The notes beneath the pieces were generated by a model, which had not been told where the DNA came from, did not search any database, and saw only the letters and a program-made list of their open reading frames with translations. Below are positions 1 through 49,330 of a DNA stretch of 64,000 nucleotides, piece after piece. How positions within the stretch are numbered: position 1 is the stretch's first letter; every line of letters starts with the position of its first letter. The translations under genes were made by a program, and so were the position numbers. Origin of the DNA: Octopus vulgaris (Eukaryota); the NCBI GenBank assembly GCA_951406725.2, contig OX597836.1, positions 29,326,001 through 29,390,000 of the forward strand, given 5' to 3'.

Positions 1-2495
1 TGTTTATATATATGTTTATATGTATGTTTATATATATGTATATATATATGTATGTTTATATATATGTATATATATATGTATGTTTATATATATGTATATA
101 TATGTATGTTTATATATATGTATATATATATGTATGTTTATATATATGTATATATATATACGTTTATATATATGTATATATGTATGTGTAAATATAGATG
201 TATGGGTATGTATATATGTGTGGGTATATATATGTGTATGTATAGATGTATGTATATATATATATATATATATATATATATATATATGCATGTATAGATG
301 TATAGATAATATGTATGCATGTATAGATGTATAGATAATATGTATGCATTTATAGATGTGTGTGCATATATGTACAGATGTGTATGTTTATGTACATATG
401 TAGAGGTGTATATGTACATATATATGTATATGTAGACGTGTGTGTACTTACATATGTAGAGACATATGTGTACATATACATGTATGTATACTTGTGTGTA
501 TAGATGATTGTGTACATGTGTATAGATGCATATATATCTGAATAGATGTATATTTATGTATATACAGATGTATATATGTGTGTATGTATACACAGATGTG
601 TATATATATGTGTATATATATGTAGATGTATATATGTGTGCATGTATATATGTAGTTGTATATATGTCGATGTATATATGTAGATGTATATACATGTGTA
701 TGTGTATATTTACGTAGATAGATGTGTAAATATATTTGTATATATATATATATATATATATATATACATATATATATATATACACATATATATATATATG
801 TATATATATATATATATATGTGTATGTGTGTGTATATGTATATATATATATATATATATATATATATATGTATGTATATATATATATATATATGTGTATG
901 TGTGTGTATATGTATATATAATATATATACATACACATATATACACATCTACGAAAATATGCACACACACACACACACACACATATATATATACATCATC
1001 ATATATATATATGGGGACATGACACTCTGAGTAACAGCTTTTGTTATATTTCTGCTGCTTTTAAATAAAGTATATATATAGAGATAGATAGTGTATATAT
1101 GAGAATGTATATTTATATATATACAGATAGATAGTTGTGTATATATGTGTATGTATATATATATATGTATAGATAGATGTGTGTGTGTGTATATATATGT
1201 ATATATAGATAGATGTGTGTGTGTGTGTATATATATGTGTATAGATAGATAGATGTGTGTGTGTGTGTATATATATATATATATGTATAGATAGATAGAT
1301 AGATAGATGTGTGTGTGTATATGTATAGATAGATGTGTGTGCGTATATATATATATATATATATATAGATGTGTATGTATGTATATATATATGTTTATGT
1401 GTATATATATAGATTTAGATATATATATATGTATGTATGTATATATATATGTTTATGTGTATATATATAGATTTAGATATATAGATGTGTATGTATGTAT
1501 ATATATATGTTTATGTGTATATATATAGATTTAGATATATATATATGTATATATATATATGTGTGTGTATATGTATATATATAGATTTAGATATATGTAT
1601 ATGTATGTATATATGTGTGTATATGTATATATATAGATTTAGATATATATATGTGTATGAATATATATATATGTGTGTATATATATAGAGATTTAGATAT
1701 ATATGTGTGTATGTATACATATATGTGTGTATATGTATATGTGTGTATATGTATATATGTGTATGTATATATATATATATAGGTGTAAGTATTAATATAT
1801 ATAGATGTCTATATATATATGTATATCTCTATATATGTATGTGTATGTATATCTATATAGAGGGGTGTATATATGTGCATGTATATCTCTATAGATGTGT
1901 GTATATATAGAGGTGTATATATGTGTGTATGTATATATATATATATATACTTGTATGTATATAAATAGCTGTGTATATATATGTTTATGTATATATAGAT
2001 GTGTATATATGTGTTTATGTATATATAGATGTGTGTATGTATTTATATTTAGATTTCTATATATATGGGTGTACGTGTATATATTTAGATGTGTGTATAT
2101 ATATATATATGTATGTATATATAAATATATATATAGATGTGTATGTATGTATGTATGTGTGTAGATGTGTCTGTATATGTATATAGATGTGTATATATAT
2201 GTATATATATGTATATGTATATATATATATATATATATATATATATATATGTATGTATATCTGTGTATGTATATATATAGATGTATGTATATCTGTGTAT
2301 GTATATATATAGATGTATGTATATCTGTGTATGTATATATATAGATGTATGTATATCTGTATGTATATATATATAGATGTATGTATATATATATATAGAT
2401 GTATGTATATATGTGTATATATATGTCTCAATATGTTTGTATATATTTTTTATATATATATAGATGTATATATATACATGTTTATATATATTTTA
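1..2495. repeat. Degenerate TA/TG/TAGA microsatellite field
   Basis: Almost entirely (TA)n, (TATG)n, (TG)n and (GATA)n with short higher-order units such as tatatagatttagata. Confidence 0.95.
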
Positions 2496-2497
2496 AT

Positions 2498-2985
2498 AAG
2501 AATGAAGGTATTAAACCTCTTCTCCCTAGAGCGGAGGCGGGAGAGATATGCGGTGATATACATCTGGAAAATCCTGGAGGGTCTTGTCCCAAACTTTGGC
2601 ATTCAAAGTTACCCCAACCGCAGAACGGGGCGCCACTGCATGGTGCCAAGGATTCCAACATCACCATCAAAATGATGGTCCAGATACTGCAACAGCTTGG
2701 GTTTCAGAGGACCACAGCTCTTTAACATCCTCCCTAAATGCCTGAGAGACTTACATGGTGTGGATGTAGGTTTCTTTAAAACTAAACTGGATCTCTTCTT
2801 GTCGGGAGTCCCAGATGAACCTACCTCACGACAGGAGACGCAGATGCGGGCAGCAGCATCGAACTCTCTTGTTGATCAAGTGCCACGTATCAGAGGTGGA
2901 TTCACAAATTAGTGTAGCTCATTCAGCGGTGGTGCCCCAGCATGGCCGCGGCCTTCGGGTTAAAACATTTTTAAGGATTTAAGGA
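2498..2985 (+). mobile_element. CR1-group LINE, 5'-truncated 3' end (ORF2 C-terminus plus 3' UTR)
   Basis: One frame LNLFSLERRRERYAVIYIWKILEGLVPN...*...GFRGPQLFNILPKCLR...FKTKLDLFLSGVPDEP with one internal TGA, stop at 2910-2912, then a short UTR and tttaagga repeat. Confidence 0.85.
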
Positions 2986-47861: not shown

Positions 47862-48093
47862 AGGTGGCGAGCTGGCAGAATCATTAGCACGCCAGGCAAA
47901 ATGCTTAGCAGTATTTCTTCTGCCGCTATGTTCTGAGTTCAAATTCCGCCGAGGTCGACTTTGCTTTTCATCCTTTTGGGGTCGATAAATTAAGTAACAG
48001 TTACGCACTGGGGTCGATATAATCGACTTAATCCGTTTGTCTGTCCTTGTTTGTCCTTTCTGTGTTTAGCCCCTTGTGAGTAGTAAAGAAATA
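47862..48093 (+). mobile_element. tRNA-like SINE with gtcgactttgc.tttcatcctttYggggtcgataaattaagta central domain
   Basis: A box TGGCAGAATCA, B box GTTCAAATTCC; flanking duplication GATATTGGATCTGCT (47841-47855, 48094-48108). Relatives at about 5440-5610(-), 11095-11305(-), 26540-26715(-), 52670-52885(-), 61840-62055(+). Confidence 0.85.
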
Positions 48094-49084
48094 GATATTG
48101 GATCTGCTTATTTTAAGTCCCCTCTACCACTGACCTACTTTCTCCCACACTATCCCTCCCTTATGTACATCTCTTAGTCTCTTTCACCATCAGTCATCTT
48201 TATGTGTTATTCCTTACTCACTCTTCTACATTACTCCCTCCTTCATCCATTATTGACATACACCATGCCCCACCCTATTCTCATTTCCATTATTCCCACT
48301 TCCATCACCTTGTGTTTCTCCTATCACTCTCTTCCTAATCATATCAGTCATATTTTTTTTTTGTATTCAGCTGCCTTACCAACAACCAGCATGTTGCTGC
48401 ATCCCAGTCTGTCTCTTCTACCACTGCCTCTCTCCCCTACCACTGCGTCCTGCATCATAATCTTTCTTCTACCACCCTCTTGCTCTAGTCTCTCCCCTTT
48501 ATCACTCTTCTATCCACACACTTGTTCATGTTGCCTTGAGTGAACTAAAACTACGTAGAAAGGACCATTTAGTCTTGTTGGAAGCATATCAACTTCTCTT
48601 GTGCTGGTGTCATGACAAAATGCATCTGGTGATTGGTGAGTGAATGGAGACATTGTTAGGTGAAGAGGACCTCAGAGGTTAATGCTATGATAACATATAC
48701 CCAACACACACTGCTAAGTGGTTGGTATTTGAAAGGGCATCCAGCTGTAGAGACCATGTCAAAACTGGACTGTACAAGCAGGATATGTTTCTCAGCCTAG
48801 CAGTAACTCCAAATAAGAACTAAAGTGAACTGTGACAAACCACCTACCCTGTGACAGCATGGAAAACAAATGCAAAATGATGATGATAGATATTTATGTA
48901 CATACATCCTTTGTGTATATGTTTATATACATATGTATGCATATGTGTGTATGTATACATGTGTGTTTGTATATGTATGTATGTATGTGTGTACATGTGT
49001 ATGTGCATATAACTGTGTATATGCGTATGTGTCTGTTTGCATGTACATGTGTGTGATATATGTATATATATGTTTATATATTTA

Positions 49085-49330
49085 TATTTCCTGAATGCTC
49101 ACAAGTTCCATCAGCTGTTCAACAAAAACAACATAAAGGTGAGCTACAGCTGCATGCACACTATGTCAAGTGCTATTAAGAGTTACAATGTCCTCTCCTT
49201 TGCCCTTGTTCCATATATGGTTCGAAAATGTGCTGTTTATTATACTGTGATGCTTGGAAGATCTGGATTGTTAGCGAAGGCTCTTTTTTCATTGGGTTCT
49301 CTATTTGGCTGATGTATGATGTTGATTTTT
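49085..49330. mobile_element. Penelope-like element ORF remnants in inverted arrangement
   Basis: Plus strand HKFHQLFNKNNIKVSYSCMHTMSSAIKSYN (PLE RT-EN linker type). Minus strand YISQIENPMKK/FAN/RSSKHHSIINSTFSNHIWN (decayed GIY-YIG). Confidence 0.75.

Follow-up and report, generated by a model that had tools for sequence, protein, structure and literature searches.

When a family of short repeats departs from the hammerhead ribozyme consensus, are its copies decayed, or is the departure itself inherited, and do such motifs still cleave? This question is raised by a 64,000-nucleotide stretch of the Octopus vulgaris genome (contig OX597836.1, positions 29,326,001 to 29,390,000; G000:C23:29326001-29390000 in our numbering; hereafter the window), which belongs to a TA-microsatellite-rich assembly of 2.80 Gb in 227 contigs. 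A first-pass annotation of the window had proposed that four unrelated repeat families each fold as a minimal hammerhead ribozyme, three of them with non-canonical cores, and had ascribed them to a radiation of non-autonomous Penelope-like elements (PLEs). The observation proves to be real and well supported at the sequence level. The unusual cores (G3-C8, U4C and A6U) are inherited family states and not copy-level decay. The families were designated A (44014), B (31355), C (29832 and 12085) and D (24822) after their positions in the window, with E as a fifth family. The four window motifs are as follows.

44008..44084, forward strand: family A hammerhead; canonical core CUGAUGA at 44014-44020, with a long loop II and stem III ACC-GA-GGU; predicted cut after 44078; layout aaugca / CUGAUGA / long stem-loop II / GAAA CCGAGG UA / ugcauu
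31312..31362, reverse strand: family B hammerhead; core GUGAACA at 31355-31349 (G3-C8 swap), stem I of 7 bp, stem II of 5 bp, palindrome AAUAUU, predicted cut after 31319; layout uuuguca / GUGAACA / G GUCGC..GUGAC / GAAA AUAU UU / ugacaaa
29821..29874, forward strand: family C1 hammerhead; core CCGACGA at 29832-29838 (U4C), with a GNRA loop closing stem II and with stem III ACUC-C-GAGU; predicted cut after 29861; layout cugu / CCGACGA / AUG GGAA CGU / GAAA CUCCGAG UA / acag
24790..24827, reverse strand: family D hammerhead; core CUGUUGA at 24822-24816 (A6U), stem II GAGC/GCUY, palindrome ACGU, predicted cut after 24795; layout ucuuu / CUGUUGA / A GAGC GUAG GCUU / GAAA CG UA / aaaga

The four cores read as the first-pass annotation had given them. 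All four window copies possess the minimal type I arrangement, namely a 7-nt core between stems I and II, with GAAA, A15.1-U16.1 and NUH. The canonical CUGANGA pattern is found in A and in a subfamily of lineage C, termed C2, and is absent from B (G3-C8), from C1 and E (C4) and from D (U6); a strict CUGANGA search would therefore miss the variant forms, as had been anticipated. The families are indeed unrelated to each other, with no significant mutual similarity (best E value 0.007 over 33 nt). Their stem III palindromes can pair from copy to copy, with predicted self-duplexes of -7.8 to -0.2 kcal/mol, weak for B, D and E.

The main descriptor, composed after the motifs had been seen, comprised a paired 3-8, G5, A9, GAAA, a palindromic stem III, NUH and four Watson-Crick pairs in stem I, with at most one core deviation. 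This palindrome-aware descriptor matches the window at exactly four sites (44014+, 29832+, 31355- and 24822-); it gave two matches in 20 shuffled windows (0.1 per window), and 3000 shuffles per element yielded no match. A first, looser descriptor recovered two of the four sites, and its shuffled windows gave 0-2 matches each, so that a match with one deviation says little by itself when only one window is considered. The claim that each family folds as a hammerhead ribozyme is one of fit to the pattern at four sites. In the Rfam comparison, no hammerhead model occurred among the best 150 of 303 matches to the window, only microsatellite-driven miRNA matches.

The inheritance of the core states was assessed by counting exact genomic matches to degenerate patterns in which the core positions were left free; control patterns all gave 0. 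Core letters were tallied in the first 100 matches per pattern from the start of contig C1, a sample that is unbiased for the core only. Family B has 2,667 matches, with G3 in 99 of the 100, C8 in 96 and C3-G8 in none. Family D has 15,782, of which the tallied rows comprise 96 U6, two A6, one C6 and one G6, while position N7 takes all four letters. Lineage C, with 7,241 matches, is mixed (53 U4, 44 C4 and 3 G4, counted by hand), and its core letters sort with differences in stem II and loop III into subfamilies. Three of its rows with G4 (G000:C1:21147853, 22180085 and 22330919; CGGACGA) are otherwise identical and perhaps form a small further subfamily. A de novo hammerhead scan of all locus sequences collected in the analysis recovered B, C and D together with the fifth family E (L066:2250-2292), a Neptune-like sister of D that is absent from the window. 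Family E has 10,807 matches (76 C4, 22 U4 and 2 A4), and U4 is far commoner than U at the adjacent CpG position 7 (22 versus 3 of 100, p 6e-5), so both position-4 states are inherited. The same scan yielded several rarer canonical or near-canonical hammerhead families (L267, L163, L198, L004 and L337).

Because the variants dominate thousands of copies, the odd cores are family states, and the first-pass argument that their recurrence speaks against random decay is upheld on a genome-wide scale. By extrapolation from the tallied rows of contig C1, and with inverted insertions doubly counted, a CUGANGA search would miss about 30,000 of 36,500 exact motif matches. Among 120 unique D copies, many of them collected as D matches, 105 read CUGUNGA and one CUGAUGA; every one of the four letters again occurs at N7, and position H17 holds A 88 times, U 31 times and G once. 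The D subfamilies all retain G5, G8, A9, GAAA and NUH. In contigs of four organisms no letter other than U reaches 5% at D position 6, such cross-organism conservation being seen for D only, and U6 is present also beside an endonuclease of only 73% identity (L169/L170, one place).

C4 and U6 are best read as derived states, because the published relatives, the metagenome loci and two D-like copies with A6 in this genome are all canonical. Hydra-2_aMil (PMC8557442) agrees with lineage C in stem I (ctgt/acag) and in stem III (actc-g-gagt) and has a CUGAUGA core, and all 34 rows in File S2 of that paper start with CUGA, as opposed to the share of C4 and G4 in lineage C. The Acropora digitifera Neptune motif, as printed (GCU CUGACGAA GGGC UAAC GCUC, then CG UC AGC), is an evident homolog of D and E, yet its core is CUGACGA, unlike D and the mostly C4 family E; the metagenome loci show the same canonical relative. 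The pLTR hammerhead of D has U6 in place of A6. C and D have canonical sister families, and no C3-G8 sister of B was seen among the copies collected. Among the lineage C copies collected, one was of an intermediate type. C4 is common in two unrelated motifs, those of lineage C and family E.

The window motifs share with the minimal PLE hammerheads of PMC4209133 the type I order, the short or palindromic stem III and the location in the pseudo-long terminal repeat (pLTR); the extra base after A9 described there likewise occurs in B, D and E. In the rows of the published alignment that were compared, the cores are CUGA or UUGA, with G3-C8, C4 and U6 in none. Natural changes at the same positions have been published before: PLEs show U3-A8, a viroid U4C and phage Bcep176 A6C (PMC3088659, PMC7151607). 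These are isolated cases, whereas here the changes mark whole amplifying families. The natural state of B corresponds to the C3G/G8C double mutant of the Anolis PAc Poseidon hammerhead (Frangieh et al. 2024, PMC11167929), which as a laboratory construct is partly active and which in family B is fixed at high copy. G3-C8 and A6U as family-wide natural cores appear to be new: neither was found as a natural core in the portions of the hammerhead and PLE literature covered, which did not extend to the large PLE set of Lunse et al. 2017, where such variants may occur. Nor was a survey of cephalopod PLE hammerheads found in that literature, as far as the covered parts of PMC8495972, PMC3884650, PMC11014351, PMC13725137, PMC6155905, PMC12192606 and PMC13282606 also go.

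The placement of the motifs in PLE terminal repeats is borne out for C, D and B, whose motifs lie 3' of reverse transcriptase (RT)/GIY-YIG frames. For lineage C, a PLE remnant at 49085 in the window served as the lead to a young family with open frames of 727 amino acids, whole in 9 of 20 fetched loci. Seven of these nine loci carry a C-type motif just upstream of the frame and another about 1 kb downstream, all reading CUGAUGA (subfamily C2). The protein, which has 1,927 relatives at E <=0.001, shows the Hydra-clade marks RWK, DKT and a CxCX5C linker, terminal CxxC and CxH, and TA insertion; its placement in the Hydra clade is by motif and not by a tree with references, and Pfam gave no match to it. 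Six young frames differ at 0-16 of 2181 bases, and L223:2304-5740 is a very young, apparently intact element of this clade, whose stem II consists of two pairs and a GNRA loop. The element measures about 3.4 kb, compared with the <3 kb described for Hydra-clade elements in PMC8557442. Upstream of the C1 motif, a sister frame (75-89% identity) was reached in 12 of 30 loci, 11 of these with C4; the C4-family frame is nearly full length but frameshifted in L317.

For family D, the endonuclease beside one copy was used as the query, and 26 of 30 loci have the D motif 276-885 nt downstream, with A6 in none. Ten long-frame loci contain frames of 687-1047 amino acids, each followed by a D motif. The protein has DKG, a CX2-5CxxC linker and, at the C terminus, GIY-YIG (Pfam RVT_1, E 1e-7; GIY-YIG, E 0.007), and its placement in Neptune is by motif and by eye, being close to Neptune1_Ap through RT, linker and GIY-YIG (PMC8557442 Fig. 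S7). For family B, loci L357 and L352 share 2.7-2.8 kb upstream of the motif at 88%, which encodes a broken RT and C-terminal GIY-YIG frame; compared without a tree, the linker and the endonuclease look like those in the printed Nematis rows, and RT4 does not. Elsewhere on the window's contig (G000:C23:13060551-13105611), a large tandem duplication contains pieces of family B spaced about 12.5 kb apart.

From these comparisons we assign C to a Hydra-clade PLE and D to a Neptune PLE, and identify B as the 3' end of an RT and GIY-YIG PLE. As their motifs lie 3' of their own frames elsewhere, the window copies are to be read as 5'-truncated pieces of coding elements, and the term non-autonomous, contradicted for C, D and B, fits at most A. 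No coding partner of A was found in 29 loci, a lone Hydra-like match (L097) being a separate insertion behind a TA tract, and none of E among the 21 copies listed. Family A forms a 546-nt tandem unit and resembles the animal non-LTR (long terminal repeat) retrozymes (bioRxiv 10.64898/2026.07.22.740005) in being non-coding in the copies seen, in that tandem unit and in its canonical type I hammerhead; unlike them, it is known from DNA alone, with a tandem pair at one place only. By strict anchors, in 30 best-match loci for each family, an inverted 5'-truncated partner accompanies C in 15, B in 19, A in four and D in none, and the tail is followed by (TA)n in 26, 14, 16 and 12 loci, respectively.

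Whether the variant motifs still cut is a separate matter. We lean, by no wide margin of confidence, towards the reading that the four PLE-family hammerheads, three with inherited core changes, continue to cut RNA slowly, as dimers or helped by a protein. Residual cleavage is probable for family B, somewhat favoured for the C4 forms, and rather doubtful, at a little under an even chance, for family D. Full-length or tandem transcripts of an element would contain a pair of motifs; the palindromic strands of stem III could then pair between the two, and the cut would fall after NUH. As such cleavage would be slow and would not limit the rate of insertion, core changes that attenuate it could become fixed, and the variant families would follow the same path as the published PLE and PAc hammerheads with attenuated cores. 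The published systems offer precedents: minimal PLE hammerheads cut weakly and as dimers (PMC4209133, PMC6765202), the PAc motif needs its protein in order to cut, PAc single mutants at positions 3 and 8 are dead while C3G/G8C is partly active (PMC11167929), and some activity, though low, remains in natural U4C and A6C (PMC3088659, PMC7151607).

Signs of constraint are seen in the double swap of B, which preserves the 3-8 pair, and in D, where variation is confined to N7 and H17 letters allowed by hammerhead rules; the occurrence of U6 beside the 73%-identical endonuclease and in the contigs of four organisms points the same way. The covariation check proposed with the original claim gave different results between and within families: across D, E and their canonical relatives, in an alignment of 10 hand-picked related copies, 3 of 11 stem I pairs change on both sides, and 90% of the cells are paired compared with 23-38% when the strands are slid. 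Several observations weigh against slow cleavage. Covariation within families is close to nil, and the alignment just described was itself hand-picked. Across three subfamily consensi, the invariance of the D motif does not significantly exceed that of its 3' flank (35 of 38 versus 76 of 90 columns, p 0.39). In the predicted folds of monomers, the core strand is often paired with stem III, and the active junction does not form; in the Neptune-type L404, L034 and L167, this pairing with the stem III palindrome may represent a built-in off state. The B palindrome AAUAUU has a very weak predicted self-pairing (-0.2 kcal/mol). In addition, the youngest lineage C family, with intact frames, has the canonical core, and among the copies seen of the C4 family, the frames are either broken or truncated. 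Finally, PAc hammerhead mutants still insert in vitro, at a level that is not reduced, and no reads end at the cut site, according to PMC11167929.

These last data feed the chief alternative, which we hold to be unlikely yet of real weight: that the variant families, and D most of all, have lost catalysis or no longer depend on it, the fold being kept for binding or positioning by the PLE protein, and the core changes having drifted to fixation in master copies whose insertion does not need cleavage. Besides the PAc mutants, which had no effect on in vitro insertion, the proliferation of Naiads without canonical hammerheads (PMC8557442) and the strong loss of activity upon changes at position 6 (PMC3088659) would agree with it; the highest match counts also belong to D and E, both variant, and the constraint test for D is not significant. 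On the other hand, the compensatory swap of B needs two changes by way of a dead intermediate, which would be hard without selection on the 3-8 pair, and the D subfamilies keep G5, G8, A9, GAAA and NUH and vary at N7 and H17 only within hammerhead rules. It is improbable, in our estimation, that the variant cores are instead an adaptive tuning, in which a slower or ion-dependent cut, or an off state of the monomer, would favour long tandem templates. The presence of C4 in two unrelated motifs, the inheritance of both position-4 states in E, the shift of preference to Mn2+ upon A6C (PMC7151607) and the predicted pairing of the core with the stem III strand that U6 permits in some D copies are in line with such tuning, but the off-fold is not predicted in every D form, the canonical relatives show a similar one, and drift accounts for the same pattern. 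The narrower proposal that U6 was selected to build the off-fold was rejected, the off-fold being inconsistent across copies.

Chance matches, or copy-level decay of canonical hammerheads, would explain the near-chance behaviour of the loose one-deviation descriptor on shuffled windows. They would also explain the metagenome U6 matches, which come mostly from a family with canonical neighbouring copies and look like sporadic decay there; these Neptune-type motifs (19 loci, 18 of which share a near-identical stem II and form one family) were accordingly discarded as support. For the octopus families we regard this explanation as very improbable, given the absence of matches among the element shuffles, the dominance of the variants over thousands of copies where controls gave none, and the fixed position of the motifs at PLE 3' ends; for B, C1, D and E it is refuted by the genome-wide counts.

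The elements that carry the four motifs, and the other related copies in the window, are as follows.

43791..44245, forward strand: family A element; a 546-nt tandem unit elsewhere, coding part not found
31172..31377, reverse strand: family B pLTR and tail; 3' end of a PLE that encodes RT with GIY-YIG at the C terminus
31409..31530, forward strand: partial inverted B copy; an 18-nt deletion takes out the core, right end approximate
29820..29969, forward strand: family C1 pLTR and tail, flanked by TA tracts; 3' end of a Hydra-clade PLE
12017..12172, no single strand: lineage C inverted composite; core CCGAUGA at 12085-12079 (reverse), without the 5' strand of stem I
1011..1070, forward strand: decayed C fragment without a core
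24702..24964, reverse strand: family D pLTR and tail, flanked by TA tracts; 3' end of a Neptune PLE
4114..4222, forward strand: damaged D-lineage copy; U6 retained, C3 and stem I gone
38693..38836, reverse strand: old D-lineage copy; core decayed to CUGUCUA
49085..49190, forward strand: remnant of a Hydra-type PLE linker, from another and older family, joined to none of the four motifs
20351..20569, reverse strand: Hydra-type open reading frame fragment, 70% identical to the intact C-lineage protein

The window copies read as 5'-truncated ends of elements and, being single, promoter-less end fragments, are probably inert. Three details of the first-pass annotation required correction. The second C core, given as 12080-12086 on the reverse strand, was one base off; the copy around it falls short of a complete hammerhead, having lost stem I's 5' strand at the inversion junction, and fails the descriptor. 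The range had been extended to 1011, where the copy has no core. Of the PLE remnant reported at 49085-49330, the part 49085-49190 is a PLE linker with 44% identity to the C-lineage protein, without a Pfam match; for 49190-49330 no match was found, relatives among the collected loci being confined to the former part.

In their surroundings, three exons (28647-28727, 30661-30768 and 31719-31814, forward strand) match Pfam Adaptin_N in order, and presumably belong to an AP-3 delta subunit gene; the C1 copy lies in sense and the B copy in antisense orientation within its introns. The interval of about 43050-43790, directly upstream of family A, is what we take to be a Tc1/mariner fragment. An inverted repeat of 389 nt at 12694-14091 (95%, arms 620 nt apart) is possibly a miniature inverted-repeat transposable element.

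PLE hammerheads are near-universal in pLTRs, and yet mutants insert in vitro (PMC11167929). On whether these hammerheads need to cut, the octopus genome offers natural matched pairs, namely U4/C4 in a Hydra lineage with an intact protein, U4/C4 in family E and U6/A6 in Neptune-type motifs, and the natural G3-C8 swap of family B adds to the set of matched variants for testing this need. It is possible, though we consider it unlikely, that each of the three variant cores functions as a ribozyme in vivo; the core would then be evolvable inside a protein-RNA complex, G3-C8 and A6U would represent new natural chemistries at tens of thousands of copies, and most hammerheads here would lie outside the standard search pattern. 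If the variants are active, the hammerhead core would be widened; if they are inactive, PLE families can spread with a dead ribozyme.

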